DNA from: Sphyrna mokarran
Lineage: Eukaryota
Assembly: GCA_024679065.1 (NCBI GenBank)
Contig: JAGIQG010000104.1
Location: 1-64,000, forward strand
Length of the DNA: 64,000 bases
Direction: 5' to 3'
In this document: positions 21,720 through 47,095 of the stretch, in pieces
How the letters are laid out: the number at the start of each line of letters is the position of its first letter
Position numbering within the stretch: the stretch's first letter is position 1
Position numbers and translations under genes: made by a program
The notes under the pieces: model-generated
What the model was told of the DNA's origin: nothing
The model's input: only the letters and a program-made list of their open reading frames with translations
Databases searched by the model: none

Positions 21720-21830
21720 CTCAAAATAACCACACCCTGGCCGTCATCAGGACACTGAAGACAATGCTCTTGAGAAACAAAATCCTTAGCCCCATCACCG
21801 TCAAAGACAAAAAGTTTGTCCTCAGTCGAT
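21720..21830 (-). CDS. TCR-delta-like transmembrane exon (optional in-frame extension to 21887)
   Basis: DRLRTNFLSLTVMGLRILFLKSIVFSVLMTARVWLF* has the TCR alpha/delta CART motif with charged R and K; acceptor TTTTGGCAG|, donor G|GTAAG just after the stop. Confidence 0.9.
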
Positions 21831-22360
21831 CTGCCAAAATGAGAAAAACAAATGATAGATCTGGTTTGGTACATATATCACTTGGAACTGAAAAAGAAAT
21901 GTATAACATTAATGTGTTTCTTTTCCATTATCTAACTGCTTGACTTTTGTCCGTCTGTCCATCCTGTCCGCTGTCCTCTGTCCACCAGCCCGACTGTCTG
22001 CTGTCGATCTATCTGCATCTGTCTTTCACCCTGAATCTCCCTCTCTCTCTCTCTCTCTGTCTCCTCCTCTCTCTCTCTTTCTTGCCCCCCACCTCCACCC
22101 CATCCCCCGCATCCCTCGATTTATATCTCTCTCGCCCTCACTCTGTGTGACGATCTATCTTTCTCTCCATCTCACTATATCTTTATCATTCGATATCCGG
22201 CTCTGTATCCCTGTCTATCTCTCAGTTATCAATCTGTCTATTTGCAGTATTTTCCATTGATAAATGTTGAATAAAGCACATACCGTTTTCTGTCGAGGAA
22301 TCATATCGACTTTTAAGGCATTTAGTTTGATCTGGAAGGACACAAAACAAACTGACTTAT

Positions 22361-25196: not shown

Positions 25197-25508
25197 CAAT
25201 CCCAGCTGTGGGTAGGGTGTTTACTGAGTAAATCTGATTATTGTGAAATGCCTTGCACGTGATGTTTGGCGATTTCCCGGATTGGGAGAAAAAGAGGAAA
25301 CCCGAACTCCTGTAATTCCCGCTCTCCAATGGGACACTGGATCTTGTCACATTGACCTCCTGGCCGGATCCTGTGTACAGGGAGAGCTGGATTGCCTTGG
25401 GGGAGAAGTCCGAGGCCAAGCAGACTGCAGCGGTGCTGGTGTTGGTGGCTCCCGGTGGCACTGGCGGGTAAAAGACACTCAATTTTGGTTCTTTTAGGTT
25501 TTTCACTT
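25197..25508 (-). CDS. TRDC: TCR-delta-like constant Ig (C1-set) domain exon
   Basis: KVKNLKEPKLSVFYP...AAVCLASDFSPKAI...GNYRSSGFL...ITCKAFHN; TTTTTTCAG| acceptor, G|GTAAGT donor, 312 nt open frame. Confidence 0.85.
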
Positions 25509-27100: not shown

Positions 27101-27163
27101 TGGGTTCCACTATCAGCCTGGTTCCAATGCCAAAGATGAGCTTTCTAGTCTCGCCATATGTCA
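27101..27163 (-). CDS. TCR alpha/delta-type J segment with 12-RSS (27164-27191)
   Basis: TYGETRKLIFGIGTRLIVEP, FGxG motif, A|GTAAGT donor; RSS CACAATC-12nt-ACAAGATCT. Confidence 0.9.
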
Positions 27164-27431
27164 CACAATCTTTCATTCCATAACAAGATCTCTTGCGGTC
27201 TGGTCCACCTCTCTCTGTCCCTCTGTCGTGTCCCACTTGGGGTCGGTCAGACTAGTAATGGTGTACTCTCAGTGAATATCACTGTGGGAATGGAAGGAAG
27301 TTGTGGGGAGTGCTGTGGAGGGGGAGGGGGTGTGGGTAATGTTGGCTACAATTGAGAGAGCTTGGTGTTCTGCTGAGTGGCTGGGAGGTTATTGACCCGC
27401 TTTAAGGAGGTTTCAGCTATTATGGTACCAC

Positions 27432-27553
27432 GATATAATCCCCACCATGTTCAGGTTTCTGTACCCCTCTCTCCGGGTTCTATATCACGGTGTCTATAAT
27501 GCCCACCATGTTCAAGTTTCTGTACTGCTCTCTCCGTGTTCTCTATCACTGTG
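27432..27553 (-). repeat. Tandem 61-bp duplication carrying two 23-spacer RSSs
   Basis: RSS1 CACAGTG(27553-27547)-23-ACAGAAACT; RSS2 CACCGTG(27492-27486)-23-ACAGAAACC. Confidence 0.85.
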
Positions 27554-27859
27554 TTGTGCGTTGACTCAGTGCACAGTAGTACACAGCCGAGTCGCTCAGT
27601 TGCAGTTTGGAGATTGTTAATCGGCTGATTTTCTCGCCAGAATCGATAGAAGCAGAAATTCTGTCTCTGGCAATGTTTTCTTTGTTGTCCCCTCCTGAAG
27701 TGTGTGCCTGTTGCAATAATTTCGGAGCCTGCCCTGGAGATTGGCTGTACCAGTGTACTGTGTACTGACATAACCCTGAATATTCACATCTTAGAATAAC
27801 CGTGTTCCCTGCAGCAGAGGTTTGGAGAGACGGATTCTTGGACACCAGGGAACTGGAAT
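27554..27859 (-). CDS. Leaderless 'supporting' TCR V segment (NAR-TCR-supporting Vdelta type)
   Basis: DSSSLVSKNPS...LRCEYSGLCQYTVHWYSQSPGQAPKLL...DSAVYYCALSQRT; extra CDR1 Cys; CCTTCAG| acceptor; 23-RSS; no spliceable leader found. Confidence 0.9.
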
Positions 27860-29789
27860 CTGAAGGATTAAAAAAAATGATGTTTTATCCACTTTTTTAC
27901 CGTGCAACATGGGAATCACAGGAATATGTCTTCATTTGCGGTATTCTAATTAAATATTATAAAATTTCATATTAAATCTGATGGAACTATATTCACTCTT
28001 ATTACGATACAAACTAGTGAAGCCTGAGGCAATATCTCTTACACACCAAGTACTACTGATCTGGAATGTATTGTCATAATGAGTTGTGGGAGCAGATTCA
28101 ACAGTGAATGACCAGTTGGTCATTACCAAATGGTCAAGTACCGGCACAGGAAAGGCAAGCAGGGTAATGGGGAAAAATTCGTGGGCATTAGGAAGAATTG
28201 GATTTCATTTATAAAGGGCCAACATCTACAAGAAGGGCCGAATGCCATTCTTCCACCCTACATGATCCTGCGATGGAGAGTACAATCCAGCTTCTATTTT
28301 CATTATTGACAGACAAGCACTAGGGAACATTTTATCATCAGTGAAGCAATCCGTTTCCAGACATGATTGTCCCAGGATAACCCAGATAAGCTCCACACCA
28401 AGCACAGCAAGACCCAACAGAGTGTTATTGTGATTCATCAGCTCCAAAGGGGCTGAACGAAGCTGCACATCGATGGTCAAATGTCATTAATTTATTTTGG
28501 TTTAAAACTTCTGGGAGTTTATGTTTGCCTTTTCATCCATTTGTTTATCTATTTTTCTATTTCTATTAAAATAGGACTGTTTAATCAGTTTCATTTTATT
28601 TATATTTTCATGTTCTATTGTTCGGTGTCTTGTAATCATGAGAACTTGTCTCAAAGTCTCCCAGCTGTCTGTTGGGTTCAGTTTGTTCAGTTTCCACAGT
28701 GGTTTTACAGTTACACACAGGGAACCGTCTCTTCCGGCTCTCTGACAATTTTAATTCCTTCTGCACATTAATGTTCTTTCCCTGGTTTTTGGGGCAGGGT
28801 TTTCTCTATGTTTTACGTTATTAAGAGTCTGCCAAAATATATTGTACCATTTGGCCCAACTGATTTATGTTGCAAATTTATCCAAACTTACCTCCTCCAT
28901 CCAGAAATCCAGTTGATATTTACATCCAGCTCCCTTTGTAAATCTATTACCTTCTCCCCCCGTATGCTCAAGATGCCCCACAAATGCAACAAAACTACCT
29001 TCTCCAACAGTTCTATGTGCCAAGTTCTGACAATCCACCGTACAGTTATTACTCTCAATCTGTTTATTAGTTTTATTAGTGCCAATCATGTATAAATTGT
29101 TCTAAACTCACATACAAATAAAGAACTGGTCAACACCCACACATTATACAATCAGAATTTAAACGGTTTCTATGAATTCTTCTCTTCTCTCTTTACTTTC
29201 CAGAGGGAACGCTAAAATCTTCCCTGTTTTCAACAAAGTTGGGGCTAAATCACCAACACATTCCTGAACTTATCCAGTAAAAAAAGATCCTTTTAGTTTG
29301 GAAAATCTTGTCTGTAATTGCCTTGAATACACAAAACCACTGAGCATTCACAGTTTTCTGATATAAACGCTTCTCAGATACTCATAAAAGGGAATAACCG
29401 AAAGAATTTATCTTCTTCTCAATTATTGACAATTATTTAAAAGTTGTGACCCAAAGCTAAAGGCGTCCCTGCCTGGACACATGCCCAGAATCTGTTTCGT
29501 CAAACCTCCGGAGAATATTTTCTGTTGAATTGGCTGTCATGCTTCTGAACTCTTAAGAAGGTAGCATTTGGATACTTAATACCTTCACATAGGGCAATCG
29601 CTTTCAGTATAGAACCTGGTGTGGCAATCATTGGTTCACTTACTTCAAAGAGATAAGCCATTCCTGATGGTTGTGTTAAAATTGTTTCAGAGTGCTCCAG
29701 ATTGGGTTTCCAGATTGGGCCACATTTCACTTATCACCACAATCAATTCCTCTTCCAAGTGGTGTTGAAAACAGAGGAATTCAATATCT

Positions 29790-30455
29790 AGGGGAACGGA
29801 TGGGGTGAACGGCAGATCAATGGCAGATGGAACTTAATCCTGAAAATTGCATGGGGATACATGTTGGGAGGAGTAACAAGACAAGGGAGTATTTAATAAA
29901 TGGCAGGACACTGGAAAGCTCAAATGAACAGAAAGATTTGATTCCTTGTCCACAAATCACTGAAGGCGATAGGACATGATAATTGGGGCAGACGGGACAA
30001 TCGCTTTAATAACTCATGGCATAAATTATTAAAACTGCCGGGTTATGTTAGAGCTGTACAAAGATTTCGATAGGCCACATCTATCGCCTCACTATTGAAA
30101 GAATATGATTTCACTGAAAGGGTACGGAGGAGATTCACCATAATGTCGCCTGCGAAGGAGAATTTGAACTTCAAGATGAGCCTGGATAAGCTTATATTGT
30201 GCTCTTCAGAGCAGAGACCCACTTTGAGATCTATAAGTTTATACAGGAATTGACAGGGTAAATGGGAATCAAATTCTCCTCACAGTTGAAGGGTCAATAA
30301 ATAGGTGGCATATGTTTAGAAAGGGAGATGGACGTAGATGAACTTGCGAAACATTTAAGGCTGTGGGTCTAGTGCTGGAAGATGGAATTCATGAAGATTT
30401 TGTTGGTACAGACTTGATAAGCTGAAGGGCCTATTCCATGTTATATAATTCTGTG
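29790..30455 (+). mobile_element. Decayed CR1 fragment (paralogous to 31620-32050)
   Basis: Shares idiosyncratic sequence such as GAAGGCGATAGGA..GGGGCAGACGGGAC with 31620-32050. Confidence 0.75.
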
Positions 30456-31036
30456 ATAGCAGATTTCAATATGCTGTACCAACAGGCAAGGAAGACATCA
30501 TGGAACATTCTTCATCTTAGAAAGAAGTAAAAGAAACAATCTTTAATTAGTGGAATGGCCTTGGAAGTAATTGACAACTTAAATGGCCAATCAGGGCATT
30601 AATGGGAGGATTGGGTTTGCCATGGTCATTTCCGGTGCCATGTCACAGCCAAGTACAATATCTGAATATTCCTCTTTCAGACGCCGCAACAATTTCTTTC
30701 TACTCAGTGCCTCGCTCAGCTTCATTACAGACAGCATGTAAAAGTAAACCATATTGCTTTATACTGATGACCATATTTACTACACCAGGTGGAAACGGCA
30801 GATTTCCATCCGTAACGGGTTTATCATCGCCATACTGAGACTGGTCTTTACTTCCAGTTGCTCACATAAATTTCCATTAAATTGCACCAGCTGCCCTGGT
30901 GAGATTTGACCGTGTGCAGGCTGAGCACTGGGTCACAGAAATACTAACGCAATTACATTACCACCACATCACCAACTCCACAGTGCGGACATGAACCCAG
31001 TAAGTCTGTAAGATATTTCGGCTTGGAGTCACTTAC

Positions 31037-31384
31037 CAGCTGTGACATTCACCACCGTTCCAGGTCCGTCTGCATAACCCGCTTTTGAAACGCTAGTTCC
31101 ACATCCATGTTTATACTGAGCTTTACAGTAATAGATGGCGGTGTCTTCAACTCTCACATCCTGAATTTCAAGAGAAAATGTGTTTTGTGCTTTATTCACC
31201 GATACAACAAATCTTCCTCCGCTGGAGATCCTCTCCCGTTCTTTCCCGCTCTGGGTTTGTCTAAAGAAATGTCCGCCCTCCAAACTAGAATAATCAGCTT
31301 TGAAAACACAGGTGATGGTGAGAGACTGACACTCCTTCCTGGTCACCGCTGTTGGGCTCTGTGTCACTGACTGACTGAAAGATT
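31037..31384 (-). CDS. Germline-joined, leaderless NAR-type V(D)J exon
   Basis: 348-nt open phase 1-1 exon ESFSQSVTQSPTAVTRKECQSLTITC...DTAIYYCKAQYKHGCGTSVSKAGYADGPGTVVNVTA; no RSS inside; G|GTAAGT donor; leader donor mutated GT>AT at 31531. Confidence 0.9.
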
Positions 31385-31619
31385 CTGGAAATTAAACACA
31401 GAGAGTTTAATGGGCCGTCAGAGCCAAATCACACAACAGAGTTAAACCCCAAACAATGTCTGTAATTGGGATAAATTGGAGCAGATTTATATCCAATCCA
31501 CAGAATGTGGGTTAGTTTGAATAGTACTCATAGGGTAAACAGACTCCCTCCTCACTCTCTCACTGCACTGTGTGTATGTCTGTGTGTGGAGGATGGTGGG
31601 TATGTAAGCTTTCACATGG

Positions 31620-32050
31620 AACGAAGATTAACAGAATGGCTAATAGTGAGGAAGAAGTCAAAGATTGTCGGATAATATTGACAGCTTGGTCAGATGGCAG
31701 GTCAATGGCTCATGGAACTTAACACTGAAAAGTGCGAGTGGATGCACGGTGGGAGGAGTAACAAGACAAGGGAGTATTTAATGAATGACAGAGCCATGGA
31801 AAGCTCAAATGAACAGAAAGATTTGACTCCTCATCCACAAGGCCCTGAAGGCGATAGGAGATGATACTAGGGGCAGACGGGACGATTGTCTTTATAAGTC
31901 GTGCAAAAACAAAGAATATTAAAACAGCAGGATTATGTTAAAGCTGTACAAAGCTTTCGATAGGCCACATCTGGAGTACTGTGTACAGTGCTGTTAGCCT
32001 CAGTATTGAAAAAAATATGATTTCACTGAAGGTTTAGAGAGGAGGTTTGT
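31620..32050 (+). mobile_element. Decayed CR1 fragment replacing the leader/promoter region of the joined V
   Basis: Paralogue of 29790-30130. Confidence 0.75.
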
Positions 32051-35000
32051 GAGAGAGTCTGTGTGTGTCAGAGAGAGAGAGGGAGAGGAGAGAAAGTGTA
32101 TGAGAGAGAATGTGTGATAGAGAGCCACAATGAAGTGTTTGATTCGATTTCTGGCTTGGGTCACTATCTGTTGGAGTTTGTAAGGTCTCCTCCTGTTTGT
32201 GTGCGTTTCCTCCGGGTGTTCCAGATTCCTCCACATTCTGAAAGATTTGCTAGTTCAGCGCATTGATCCGAATAGGCGCCAGACTAGGGGAATTTCACAA
32301 TAATTTCATTGCACTGTTAATGTAAGCCTCACTTGTGACTAAAAAAAAACTTTATCCTCTCGTGTTTCTCCAAACTCTGGGGGAAAAAAGACCCACCATG
32401 TTCCCCCCTTGAAGAGAGAGTGAATTGTTGCTGGTTTCTTCCCTAAGGAAAGCATACATTGATTCAATAGTTCCAACTGATAGGAAAAGCAAATTAGTGC
32501 AGATGCTGGTATCTGAAATCAAAAGAGAAAATGCTGGAAAATCTCAGCAGGTCTGACAGTATCTCTAAGGACAGAAAAGAGCTGATATCGCGAGTCCAGA
32601 TGACCCTTTGTCAAACATTATCTTGAATGCCTTCAACACTGACTATCCACAACTCTCGGGTGCACATAATTCTCACATTCACCACAATGGCTTTGACTGA
32701 AGAAATCTCTCCCCTTCTCAGTCCAAATGGCTGAACAGGTTTTCTGCAAATCTGACCCCAAGTTACAGACTTTCTACTCTAGAAAAACACAAACACCCAG
32801 AGTTTGTCTTGTCATATCCTTTGAGAATAAAATAAATTCTATTGAGTTCACTCCTTATTCCTTTAATCTTAATGTAAGTGAAAAAGGCAATGGGTCTTCA
32901 ATCCCTTCTCAAAGGACAAGCATTTTATCCAAAGACTCTATTTGAAGAACTATCGTTAAATTCCCTCTGAAGTATGTAGATCCTTCCTAAACAAAGAGAC
33001 CAAATATTACACTACAACCATAATCTCCACAAATTTCAATACCAATCCTGAGATGTTAGGGTGTTGTATTTTCAGTTTTCTTCAGAAACAATCCAATCCT
33101 TCTCTCTCTGTCGATTAGAACAAAGAACAAAGAATAAAACAGCACGGGAAACAGCCCCTTCGGCCCAACGAGCCCGCTCTGCCACCCCGATATTCCCACC
33201 TCTACCCGCGATCCCTGTCCATGTTTATAGATCTATGGTTTAAAAACCAAATTTGAGACAATTTAGGGAGAATTTGTTTTGCTAATTGCTTGTTCTAATG
33301 GAATATCACCTTCGCATTTGTTTGCTGTTGTTCCTGTTCCCTTTCATACGATTTTCACATCATCTTCACTCTCTTATTGCACTGTGTGATTTCAATTAAC
33401 AGTAATCAGGAATACAAATATATTACAGCAATAGCTCAGAAATAACCATCACCGCCCTTCTGTATGTCCTGACCCATTGGCAGGACAGACTCAGCAGAGC
33501 TAGCGGCACAATGGGGTATAGTCGGGAACCACTTGCCCTGAGAGTTCTCAACATCGACTCTGAACCGCATAAACACTTCTGACATCAGGTCAGACATTGA
33601 CAAGGGAACTGCTGCTGACTACTACGTGGCTCCGCTGATGTATCTAAACTCCTCTATTTTGAACAAAAAAAAATGAAGGAAGCAGTGAAGATGGCAAGAA
33701 CACAGAATGAACTCTGTTTGGGGGGCTTGAATATTCATCACTACGATTGGCTCGATAGCATATAGCTCGACATAACTGCTAAACTGGAACTGTGGCAGGG
33801 AGCAAGGAAACTGCCAAGAGGGCAAAACACATATTTGACCTCATCCTCAGCAAAATAATTGCCGCAGAGGCATCACCGGAGCAGTGTCAGCAGGACTGAC
33901 AATTTACAGCTCTTGTGGACACAAAGTCCTGTCTTCACATTGAGCTACGCTCCATCCTGTAGTCTGACACAGTCACTGTGCTAAATGGGATAGGGTTTGA
34001 GCCGATCTAGCAACTCATTACTCGGCATCCATGAGGCATTATGGACCATCAGCAGCAGCATTGCACTCAAACCCAATCTGTAACCTTGTGGCTCAGCACA
34101 TCCACTGCAGTGACATTAGCAGACACGGGATTAACACTGGTTCAATGAAGACTCCAGGAAGCAACAGCAGCAGCAACACCAGGCAATGCTATAAGTGATT
34201 TGTCAATCCAGTAAAGATAAGGCTAAGCTTTGGCAACAATTTTCATCCTGAGGTATTGAGTGGATGATCCATCTCAACCACCTCCAGAGGTCCCTAATGT
34301 CACTGATGTCAGTTTCCATCAAACTGAATTCACTCCATGTGATTTCAGTACCGGCTGAAGGCAATGGATGCTGCAAAGACTGTGGGCCCTGGAAATATGC
34401 GTGTAACAGTACAGAAGACCTATGCTCCAGAATTAACCACTCACGGTGGAAAATGAAAAGAAAAGTTATTGTTTATATTGAGGAAAATTTAAAAAAATAT
34501 ACAATGTCATTGATTCCAATCATTGACTTCTCTAATACAAAATTCCTTCAAACCTAGAATAAGTATTGTTTAATTCTCTGTTCGCAGTCTGGGTCAGATA
34601 ATGATGGAGTCGCTGCCTTTAAATGACATCGATCTCATTCAGCCGGTAGCTTATTCACATTGCACGGCTGGGACTGCGAACTACTGCTGAGGAGAGAGCT
34701 CTGACACTCCGCTGTGGGGCTGTAAACGGCAGACATATCTCTTACATTCACTTCTTACAACCAGACTGGATTCTAGAGTGTCCTCAATTTAAGTTTGTTG
34801 AAAAAAAAACTATCAGGAGTGTCAGACTGGTTGATGTTGATGTGCCTCTTAAAGCAACGTTCGCCCAGATGTTGTCAACTCTCTCAGAACCCTGAACACC
34901 AGGACCCGCACCCCGCGCCCCACCACCCTCTCGCCCCGAACCCCCTCCGCCCCCGCCCCAGTCTCCCCCCAAAGTTTCATCCCACTACCGCTGCCCCGCT

Positions 35001-35209
35001 GACAACCGACTCCATCAGCTCTCAAAGAGACTTTCCCCGGGACTGACTGGAGCCGGTTCCAGAATCACACCCTGCTCCCAACTCCTAATCTGTAACGGAT
35101 GATTTTCCACAGGAAGATCCGATGGGATTGAAATACAGATCACAATGATAAAGTGAAGGGGGAGATTAAAGGAGACAGACTGTAACAAGACGGGATTGGA
35201 GTCACTTAC

Positions 35210-35267
35210 CGGCTGTGACCCTCACCACCGTCCCGGTTCCATCCACATAATCATATTTCCAATCATA
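35210..35267 (-). CDS. NAR-type J segment with 23-RSS (35268-35306)
   Basis: YDWKYDYVDGTGTVVRVTA, G|GTAAGT; CACAGTG-23nt-ACAAAAACC consensus RSS. Confidence 0.92.
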
Positions 35268-35646
35268 CACAGTGACTCCGCCCTCAGTCACCTCTGTACA
35301 AAAACCACCGATATCCCAATCTGCCGGAAAACCATCACCAGACATCGAGAAGTGTCCAATTATTCGGGGGATTTAAAATCAATAAATAATATTCAGCGTT
35401 TCAACGTCTCTGTCGGTTCAAACTGTAATTTTGTGAGGCCCGATCTCTCAGTAAATGGCCGCAGGAAGGAAATATTCACTTTATATATAGCCAAAAATAT
35501 CAAGGAAAGATGTGAATGGTGGAGATTACAGTAGAAATAATCCCGATCACAGCGATAATATCATCAAACCAATGATTCACTCTCTGGGTACTGAGTATTG
35601 ATAGTGTAATTATGCACAGGTATTTGTTCAGCTTCTTTCCACAGTG

Positions 35647-35662
35647 ACTTTCCCAAATATTA
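35647..35662 (-). other. NAR-type D segment flanked by 12/12 RSSs (35619-35646 and 35663-35690)
   Basis: GGTTTTGAT-12-CACTGTG [TAATATTTGGGAAAGT] CACTGTG-12-ACAAATACC; open frames NIWES and IFGK. Confidence 0.85.
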
Positions 35663-36074
35663 CACAGTGTTACAATTCAGCATCAAAACCTCGGGGACTG
35701 GGTGGGATGTTGGAACATGAATTAAACAGAGCGGAAAGTGGCTCCCAGTTCCGGCTGTGAGCCGAGGATCCCATCTGGTGTCAGGGTTTGTAACTGGGAT
35801 CAGTCATTTCCATTTTCAATTCACCGACAGCACTCCCGGGAATGACAGCCCCATCCACTCACACTCCGTATTTATAAACCTCAACATAGCAACGGTGATA
35901 ATCAGGTCTTATTAAAAATAAACTGTGGCATCAGGAGTGTGAGGGATTGGCGGGTAGTGGGATTGGGGGGCGCGGTGGTGGTTCAGGGTAGATTAACTCC
36001 GGTTTTCCCTTTGGTTCTGTGAGAATCCGCAAAGAAAGTTTTTGTATCGCCGGAAGCTGAGGTCCATCACTGTG

Positions 36075-36353
36075 TCTTGTACTTGGCTTTACAGTAATAG
36101 GTGGCGGCGTCTTCAACTCTCAAATCCCGAATTTCCAGCGAAAATGTCTTTCCTGCTTTGTTCACAGACACAGTAAATCTCCCTCCGTTGGAGATCAGCT
36201 CCCACTCCTTCCCGGGCTGGGTTTGTTTGAAGAATTCGCCGTTTACTAAGCGAGCATAAGCAGAACCATACAAATCACAAGTGATGGTGAGAGACTCACA
36301 CTCCTTCTTGGTCACCTCTGCCGGGTTTTGTGTCACTGACTGACTGAAAGATC
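36075..36353 (-). CDS. Rearranging NAR-TCR V segment with 22-nt-spacer RSS (36074-36037)
   Basis: RSFSQSVTQNPAEVTKKECESLTITC...GGRFTVSVNKAGKTFSLEIRDLRVEDAATYYCKAKYK; IgNAR-like short FR2/CDR2 region, FR1 extra Cys; CACAGTG-22-ACAAAAACT. Confidence 0.92.
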
Positions 36354-36501: not shown

Positions 36502-36544
36502 GGGGTAAACAGGCACACAGGGTGAAAACAAGAAGGATTCCCAT
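36502..36544 (-). CDS. Leader exon of the NAR-TCR V
   Basis: MGILLVFTLCACLP followed by C|GTGAGT phase-1 donor. Confidence 0.88.
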
Positions 36545-44749: not shown

Positions 44750-45720
44750 TTATCTGTGAACTTGCTGGTGTTTCACCAGATTGGATGATTCGATAAATCT
44801 CTTCCCGCACTCGGAGCAGGTGAACGGCCTCTCCCCAGTGTGGATGCGCTGGTGTGTCAGCAGGTGGGATGATCGTGCAAATCCCTTCCCGCACTCAGGA
44901 CAGGTGAACGGCCTCACCTCAGTATGAATTTGTTGGTGTGTCAGCAGGTTGGAGGACTGAGTGAATCCCTTCCCACACTTGGAGCAGATGAATGGCCTCT
45001 CCCCAGTGTGAACTCACTGGTGTACAGTGAGATGAGATGATTGCCTGAACCCAGTCCCACAGTGTGAGCACTGGAACGGTCTCTCCTCAGTGTGAACAAG
45101 CTGATGGGACACCAGTTCACCAGAACTTTTAAAGCACTTCTCACACTCTGGACATTTAAAAGGTCTCTTGTCGGTGTGAACTCGTTGGTGTGTTTGAAGC
45201 TGGGTTGCTGTCCTGAAACTCTTCCCACATTTTGAGCAGCTGAACAGTGTGTACTCGGTGTGAATGCGCTGGTGCTCCCTCAGTCCGTGAGGGCTTTTAA
45301 AGCTCTTCTCACAGTTGGAGCATTGAAACTCCCTCTTGTCAGTGTGAACTTGCTGGTGATCAGTAGGTGGGACGAGGGAGTGAATCCGTTTCCATACACC
45401 GAGCAGGTGAACGGCCTCTCCCCAGTGTGGAGTCGCTCATGCAGCTGAAGACAGATAAACTGAGTGAATCTCTTTCCACATACGGAACAAATGAAAGGCC
45501 TCTCCCCGGTGTGTCTGCGTCGATGAATTTCCATCTCAGATGGGGATCTGAATCCCTTTCCACAGTCCACACATTTCCACGGTTTCTCGCTGGCTTGAAC
45601 AGTACTTCCTGCTTCCATGTTTAAAGGCCGATGATATTCAAGTCCTGATGAATCGAGTGACTCTGTCAGATTGTGATGCTTAGTTTGACTTTCCTGACCG
45701 TGAACCTTTCAAATAATCTG
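44750..45720 (-). pseudogene. C2H2 zinc-finger gene, frameshifted
   Basis: EKPWKCVDCGKGF...[14 protein letters not shown]...HTGERPF; later fingers continue in other frames. Confidence 0.85.
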
Positions 45721-46429
45721 AAAATTAATTTAAGACAGAATCAAGGATATATAAAAGAGAATCCACAAAAACACAAAGGCAGGTTGTGAAATTGAGCTAA
45801 ATTAATTTGTGGGGTCAGCGCTAGGAAAAAGTGACCCTGAAAACTGCTGGCATCTCATAAAAACCCAACTGGTTCACTAATGTTCCTAAGGGAAGGGAAC
45901 CTGCCACCCAGTCTGGGCTTACACAAGACTCTGTTTCCATGGGAGGAGGGAGAGAGGCGAAGGAGACGGTAAAGGAGATGATCTTCATAGATCTTCAACT
46001 GAATTTGAATTTCAAAATAATCACCCAAACCCATATCTCCATTCACTGGAAAGACAAGAGCAGCTGGTGTCTGGAAATCCATCACCTCCAAGACCCACAC
46101 CAGCGAGTTCAGACTGGGGAGAGACCAGACTCCTTCTCCACGTGTGAGAAGATAAATTCAATCATCTAATCAGCTGACACACCAGTGAGTTCAGCAGTGA
46201 TTACTGGGGTTGGATTCTGCTGTTGTTGCTGCTGTTAATGACATCCAAAACTGAACTTTGTTCATTCTGATCGTTTGGGTTTGTTTCTGTTGATGTTTAT
46301 AATTTCTGTAACTCTTTAATATGTTTAATATTCTGGAACTTACCTTGTAACCCTTACTCTTCTAATAAAGCATCTTTTTTCTGTTTGATAGCAAACATTG
46401 ATTTACTTGTAATTTTTTCAACTGAGTCA

Positions 46430-47095
46430 GAGCAGAGGAATAACCTCTCCCCAGTGTGAATTTGCTGGTGTGCTGTGAGGTGAGATCATCACCTGAATTC
46501 AGTCCCAAAGTGAGAGCACCTTAACGGAATTTCATCAGTGTGGAGACATTGATAGGATAACACTTCCCTGGAACTTCTGCAGCTCTTCTCGTAGTCTGGG
46601 CAATTACAAAATCACTCCAGAGTGTGAGCACGTTTGTGTGTCATATGGTGGGATGGCTGAATGAATTATTTCCATCTCTGGAGCATTTGAACAATCTCCC
46701 GTCAGTGTGAGTATGTCGGTGAGCCAACAGGTTGGATGATGGGAGTGAAATCAGTCCAACACACGGAGCCGGTGAATGGCCTCTGCCCACTGTGACTGCA
46801 CGATGAGCTTCCAGCTCAGACGAGTAACTCAGTCCCTCCTCACTGTCCTCACTCTTACATGGTTCCTCACCAGGATGTTTATATTTGTAGCTCCTGAGGC
46901 CTAATGATCAGCTGAAGCCTCATCCATAAAGAGAAGAGCTTTACCCACTGTGAACATTGTTTTATTCTTCAATGTTTAAAATCCGAATGTTAATCAATTT
47001 ACCGTTAACTGGGAAGCTCTGTCATGTCCTGATGTGACGTTTGTTCGAAGATTCCTGACTGCAAATCCTCCTCTTCTAAAACTCTGTGACACTGA
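46430..47095 (-). pseudogene. Older, highly decayed C2H2 zinc-finger copy
   Basis: Residual CACACTGGGGAGAGG (HTGE) linkers; upstream flank is homologous to 45720-45900. Confidence 0.65.

Follow-up and report, generated by a model that had tools for sequence, protein, structure and literature searches.

The NAR-TCR of cartilaginous fish is a doubly rearranging T cell receptor (TCR) delta chain (PMC1845163, PMC12227049, PMC6795676), called a three-domain chain in the text of PMC12227049; the cysteine in the a-b loop of its NAR domain and that in complementarity-determining region 1 (CDR1) of its supporting variable (V) domain have been named as a putative inter-domain bridge (PMC1845163). The marsupial TCR mu combines a Vmu-D-J unit, a germline-joined Vmuj and a constant (C) exon in tandem clusters (PMC7615758, PMC3457774), and VNAR domains of types I and II in IgNAR have CDR3 cysteines bonded within the domain (PMC3149040). 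In the literature searched, the largest TCR form has three extracellular immunoglobulin (Ig) domains, as in NAR-TCR and TCR mu; these statements, like others below that cite an article, refer to the parts of each article that were accessible. Our analysis of 64,000 nucleotides (nt) from Sphyrna mokarran (contig JAGIQG010000104.1, positions 1 to 64,000; G000:C47 in our designation, hereafter the window) showed that they contain an intact, self-contained shark NAR-TCR delta minicluster, in which a germline-joined, leaderless NAR VJ exon (V2) lies between a rearranging NAR V (V1) and the supporting V (V3), and which would probably encode a chain with three V domains.

The cluster was recovered complete on the minus strand by scans for recombination signal sequences (RSS) and motifs, from the leader through V1, a diversity (D) segment, the joining (J) segment J1, V2, V3, J2 and C to the connecting-peptide and transmembrane exons. 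Its exon borders are all GT/AG and phase 1, and all its exons are open:

36502..36544, minus strand: V1 leader exon, from ATG to an intact GT donor in phase 1, resembling the leader of relatives' models
36075..36353, minus strand: V1, a rearranging NAR-TCR V with Cys at IMGT position 16 (36298-36300) and without Trp41
36037..36074, minus strand: recombination signal of V1 with a 22-nt spacer, from the RSS scan
35647..35662, minus strand: D segment of 16 nt with a 12-RSS on each side and no Cys codon
35210..35267, minus strand: J1 with a GT donor in phase 1, its 23-RSS at 35268-35306
31524..31542, minus strand: remnant of the V2 leader, of which the last 10 nt are left, without ATG and with the donor changed from GT to AT at 31531
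31037..31384, minus strand: V2, a germline-joined NAR VJ exon of 348 nt, in frame, with AG and GT intact
27554..27859, minus strand: V3, a leaderless supporting Vdelta with a CDR1 Cys at 27768-27770
27454..27553, minus strand: two stacked 23-RSS 3' of V3, 61 nt apart
27101..27191, minus strand: J2 (27101-27163) plus a weak 12-RSS
25197..25508, minus strand: Cdelta-type constant exon
22284..22331, minus strand: connecting-peptide exon with an inter-chain Cys
21721..21830, minus strand: transmembrane/cytoplasmic exon with Arg and Lys as in TCR alpha/delta chains

The C, connecting-peptide and transmembrane exons are intact and in phase, and C resembles the delta-type C of P0030. Judged by germline signals alone, the RSS sets are 22/12/12/23 for V1-D-J1 and 23/12 for V3-J2. 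The motif scan found no leader donor 5' of V3, and no D segment was found between V3 and J2 (window 27192-27453); direct 23/12 joining of V3 to J2 is predicted, as for V2 of platypus TCR mu. Neither an ATG nor a leader donor lies 5' of V2, yet its acceptor and donor are perfect. Since its leader is reduced to 10 nt with an AT donor, V2 is unable to start a chain of its own.

A preliminary description of this DNA had proposed that four extra cysteines staple the three V domains together, V1 to V2 and V2 to V3. All four were located at exact codons: KKECES, RKECQS, KHGCGT and SGLCQY each have a single match in the six frames of the window, all on the minus strand:

36298-36300, minus strand: Cys codon in framework region 1 (FR1) of V1 (KKECES)
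31329-31331, minus strand: Cys codon in FR1 of V2 (RKECQS); the FR1 Cys of any NAR domain is hereafter Cys16
31101-31103, minus strand: Cys codon in CDR3 of V2 (KHGCGT)
27768-27770, minus strand: Cys codon in CDR1 of V3 (SGLCQY)

V1, V2 and V3 each also carry both canonical cysteines, and V2 has four in total. The same description had taken the extra cysteines as independent support for a three-V chain, which overstated their weight. By pattern matching in the fetched proteins, 57 of 58 NAR-TCR V have Cys16 and 54 of 56 supporting V have the CDR1 Cys; these two being near-invariant in the family, three of the four cysteines are, on such counts, family defaults to be expected whatever the role of V2, and only the Cys in CDR3 of V2 is informative.

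Matches in the genome numbered 31 with V2, at least 150 with V3 and 13 with C. Full-length joined exons account for seven of the 31: C47, C180 and C994 (near 10.98 Mb) have one apiece, and C1271 has four in tandem. All seven are 348 nt long and open, with intact splice sites and both extra cysteines, and in all seven the leader is destroyed, by the GT to AT change in six and, in the other, to the point that no remnant lies within 200 nt. The sister cluster in C1271 (G000:C1271:37116-59400, L021-L023) contains V1, four tandem joined NAR VJ exons about 2.3-2.8 kb apart, a supporting V, J and C, and is predicted from this layout to encode a delta chain with six V domains. Its V1, joined exons and supporting V together have five FR1 cysteines, at the bottom of the domain, against five at the top, and the same rule of one bottom to one top cysteine holds in all four multi-V clusters of the genome. 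We considered whether the C1271 cluster could be an assembly artefact, which is unlikely since its four joined exons differ by 8-23 nt. Over 16 kb, the C180 cluster has 99.1% identity with that of the window, of which it may be an allele or a recent duplicate. The dN/dS ratio is 0.07-0.29 between V2 of the window and each of the four C1271 copies, and mostly 0.07-0.48 among joined copies.

The other annotated clusters (five, and more besides) have the ordinary layout of a two-V cassette, and several have a C of their own close by. The 13 Cdelta-like exons lie in C994 (3.87, 5.36, 10.45, 10.53, 10.98, 11.96, 12.00, 12.13, 12.23 and 12.31 Mb), C47, C180 and C1271; 11 of them are 87-100% like that of the window, which suggests that NAR-TCR in this genome is for the most part arranged, as TCR mu is, in miniclusters that include a C of their own. 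As to the stacked 23-RSS behind the supporting V, one passes the scan in C180 and in C994 at 10.98 Mb, and up to four do so in L041.

The CDR3 Cys is conserved in orthologues: in addition to the seven joined exons of this genome, it is present in the joined domains of white shark P0005 (both tandem domains), P0007 and P0009 and of basking shark P0008. When seven joined variants from the genome, white shark, basking shark and relatives are aligned, with gaps placed by hand and the variants being related, it is the sole invariant residue of columns 5-18 (14 positions). In the genome's joined exons its codon includes a case that differs only silently (TGT/TGC) although the two adjoining 5' codons have both changed. 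Among the sequencing runs of relatives (contigs from X1, X3, X4, X6 and X11, five of 11 listed runs, were examined), the codon is unchanged in X6, in a genomic contig with donor and intron, and in X11, for which all 5 differences are listed. None of the five distinct D segments has a Cys codon, and an origin of the CDR3 Cys from the present D segments is rejected. Lamniform sharks have a CDR3 of equal length with C-G-x-x-V-S-K in frameworks just 74-75% identical. It is this match, not the tree, that argues for a common origin of the two sets: in a tree of 42 NAR-V frameworks (12 rows of this genome and 30 fetched proteins) our joined exons group together (100/98) and the lamniform joined domains form a separate group (88/93), the relation between the groups being left open. 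All homologues bearing names come from sharks and rays, and a near-length protein search (5 matches) found no further joined single exons. Joined CDR1 loops have a mean of 1.0 aromatic residues, against 3.4 in rearranging V (7 versus 52 distinct loops, the samples not being independent), which fits a structural role. The suggestion that CDR3 of V2 may serve for docking rather than antigen binding gains some weight from these aromatic-poor loops.

The horn shark model P0006 (Heterodontus francisci) also has joined NAR V in tandem, whose CDR3 is a different one without Cys. Its single complete joined domain instead carries a CDR1 Cys, which no more than 2 of 55 rearranging V have; this is the swap that the chain model predicts, in one case, and P0006 is possibly an independent origin of the same design. 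In several supporting Vdelta models of Scyliorhinus and Hemiscyllium (P0033, P0034, P0036, P0044, P0045, P0051 and P0053) the first canonical Cys is replaced by Trp; the CDR1 Cys is kept, and some also lack the second canonical Cys.

That a three-V chain is made at all, the premise of the proposal, is well supported by contigs of three relatives. In X4, a 366-nt contig contains FR3-CDR3 of a NAR domain and, after 48 nt, FR1 of a V2-like domain; this distance is the expected one, 46 nt up to the donor and 2 nt past the acceptor, and the contig's loose end reads J. In X3, J is followed by GSFSQSVTQ in one contig and by a supporting V in another; two further ones carry both white-shark-type joined CDR3s. 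In X11 the joined exon ends at the exon border, where the loose-end consensus of two contigs is a mix of the starts of V2 and V3 at 28 of 30 positions (maximum of 24 positions in a control with 20000 random pairs), and J-to-supporting-V joins are present too. Joins without introns at exactly the predicted borders point to a NAR-J that is spliced to another NAR V, and these sequences indicate that this occurs in three relatives, in support of multi-V chains.

In the Ig fold, the A'-B turn contains position 16 and is close to the C-terminus of the domain, and CDR1 and CDR3 of the next domain lie beside that domain's N-terminus. With Cys16 at the bottom and CDR1 and CDR3 on top, the members of both proposed pairs would be head-to-tail neighbours; for the same reason a bond between the two free cysteines of V2 itself, at opposite ends of the domain, is rejected. 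An AlphaFold model of P0005 (34 sequences, mean predicted local distance difference test score (pLDDT) 68.5, predicted template modelling score (pTM) 0.43) shows CDR3 of the joined domain as a beta-hairpin with strands 151-163 and 166-173 (pLDDT 84-93), in which Cys163 is the last residue ahead of the turn at the tip. By IMGT count, the link from J to V2 is one residue longer than that from V2 to V3, in line, we infer, with a partner cysteine that stands higher. No NAR-TCR structure was found among the best 60 PDB sequence matches or the listed fold matches; the latter are scFv/diabody only (template modelling score about 0.3) and uninformative on domain stacking. Nor was a natural sequence with two complete tandem NAR domains found, the first domains of P0005 and P0006 being truncated.

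These observations, taken together, lead us to favour, as moderately probable, a mechanism in which V1-D-J and V3-J rearrange and the transcript is spliced to V1-V2-V3-Cdelta, with each Cys16 bonded to the top cysteine of the next domain. After joining of V1-D-J1, J1 would be spliced to V2 and V2 to V3; Cys16 would pair with the Cys at the CDR3 tip of a following joined domain or with the CDR1 Cys of the supporting V. The joined exon would then be a self-complementary, self-locking spacer with one bottom and one top cysteine, repeatable from one to four times in this genome, and the modules would form a rigid stalk that raises the single antigen-binding V1 by about one domain length each, while V3-Cdelta would pair with a gamma chain. 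The inter-domain disulfides themselves are predicted with somewhat better than even confidence.

Several points weigh against this mechanism. One or two events probably gave rise to all the joined exons, so that counts of conservation are non-independent, and the chance that the sole invariant column is the Cys is about 1 in 14. Two pairs within C1271 have dN/dS values of 1.25 and 3.6, on few changes. The CDR1 Cys of the supporting V is replaced by Arg in P0008 and is missing from P0041 too, and P0009 carries two cysteines in CDR3. The exact S. mokarran exon is not contained in any of the runs (the best share being 0.26), all of which are of guessed or unrecorded RNA status; 8 of the 17 differences in X4 are unlisted, so that its Cys is unconfirmed, and no contig of the runs examined spans V1-J, V2, V3 and C in one piece. 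In the P0005 model, the inter-domain regions have pLDDT <50 and pTM is 0.43.

It is possible, though rather unlikely, that the multi-V chain is real but that the CDR3 Cys of V2 is either free or bonded elsewhere, be it to its counterpart in a second receptor, to the gamma chain or to a further partner, with Cys16 of V1 unpaired or paired in trans. The exposed hairpin tip of the P0005 model would suit inter-chain bonds, platypus VHdelta has unpaired CDR3 cysteines (PMC3457774), and the counts are broken in P0008 and P0009. Such pairing would, however, leave one Cys16 free per added module (in C1271, five minus one), and both the balance of bottom and top cysteines in the four multi-V clusters and the move of the horn shark top Cys to CDR1, the very position used by the supporting V, speak against it. 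A distinctly unlikely explanation is that V2 is mostly an invariant first domain, the V1 leader being spliced directly to it, or is skipped, so that two-V chains dominate and its CDR3 is a fixed binding loop. This would account for the RefSeq models P0007, P0008 and P0009 (leader, joined V, supporting V) and the J-to-supporting-V joins in X3 and X11, and germline-joined shark Ig genes do yield fixed binding sites (PMC4279169). Against it stand the destroyed leader in all seven copies, the J-to-NAR-V joins in three runs and the aromatic-poor CDR1 loops, and leaderless tandem copies would make no sense as alternative first domains. The white-shark model LOC121270138, moreover, spans 8.8 kb, compared with 9.0 kb from leader to V3 in the window and about 4-5 kb in ordinary cassettes, which suggests that the model skips an unrearranged V1. 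That V2 is left over from RAG activity in the germline and was copied along with its cluster, its CDR3 Cys a junction accident, is very improbable and largely refuted: the dead leader, the near-identical cluster copies (C180) indicative of recent duplication and the lack of purifying selection in some copy pairs would fit, but all seven copies are open with intact splice sites, dN/dS is mostly low, the same-length CDR3 motif recurs in the diverged lamniform frameworks and spliced joined CDR3s occur in contigs of relatives.

Extended to galeomorph sharks, the favoured mechanism would give TCRs of adjustable height, with 1-4 disulfide-locked joined NAR spacers, 3-6 V domains and an antibody-like domain held far above the membrane, a design that horn sharks would have reached independently by way of the CDR1 Cys; we give this wider proposal an even chance. 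Standard models of TCR triggering rest on the geometry of a short receptor. A delta chain of four to seven Ig domains would, if real, break that geometry, make a receptor taller than any TCR described in the literature searched, and suggest that antigen is recognised in the manner of antibodies, in free or distant form. Two joined modules in a row would be a small natural test piece with which the putative disulfide between NAR V and supporting V is easy to test, and the design of multivalent VNAR could profit from a natural way of locking single domains head to tail.

Elsewhere in the genome, NAR V with a direct 12-RSS, apparently germline-joined V-D, occur at L041 (C994:3397706), L042 (3411382) and L044 (3602606), as they do in the Mustelus models P0016 and P0020. 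Among NAR J donors (L043 at C994:3417804; L048/L050), one has changed from GT to AT and two read GTATGT, and the V at C994:3418262 is frameshifted and without Cys16. Within the window, 11 tRNA genes lie on both sides of the cluster (1811-2917 and 54461-63771), and upstream, on the minus strand, there are C2H2 zinc-finger repeats (44750-46900); marsupial TCR mu is likewise flanked by zinc-finger genes.

Compared with IgNAR VNAR of types I and II, V2 is likewise a NAR-type domain with a non-canonical CDR3 Cys, but it has no partner Cys in CDR1, FR2 or FR4, its other free Cys lies at the opposite end, and the C exon downstream is TCR-type. The likeness to TCR mu, an analogy, lies in an invariant germline-joined V under a rearranging V, clusters with their own C and nearby zinc-finger genes. 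TCR mu, however, is mammalian and VH-derived and has two V only, its Vmuj, thought to be retrotransposed, replacing the supporting V (PMC7615758, PMC3457774), whereas V2 is NAR-type, keeps a leader intron and donor remnant and is added above a supporting V that still rearranges. The tandem joined layout has already been noticed in print, as one supplementary label without comment: white shark LOC121270133, which its NCBI description identifies as the gene of P0005, appears as 'NARTCR V(gj)V(gi)V' in table S1 of PMC12227049. That gene, too, has two tandem germline-joined NAR V ahead of the supporting V, with the CDR3 Cys in both; what the accessible part of the article gives is the table label, with no chain model, transcript or cysteine argument. 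The literature searched, outside which most subscription papers fall and whose supplements may hold more, describes neither a NAR-TCR chain with more than two V nor such cysteine pairing. The window locus is a variant of NAR-TCR, with which it shares a NAR-type V that stands at the N-terminus, has a leader and an a-b loop Cys and lacks the canonical Trp (by the criteria of PMC1845163), a leaderless supporting Vdelta with CDR1 Cys, a Cdelta and two independent rearrangements per chain, here as germline RSS sets only; the inter-domain disulfide is putative in both. Unlike NAR-TCR, which has exactly two V and three Ig domains, the window has three V exons and C1271 six, in that one to four germline-joined leaderless NAR VJ exons are added between the two rearranging V units, with a CDR3 Cys as the putative top-side partner, a minicluster that has its own J and C, and no D found for the supporting V.

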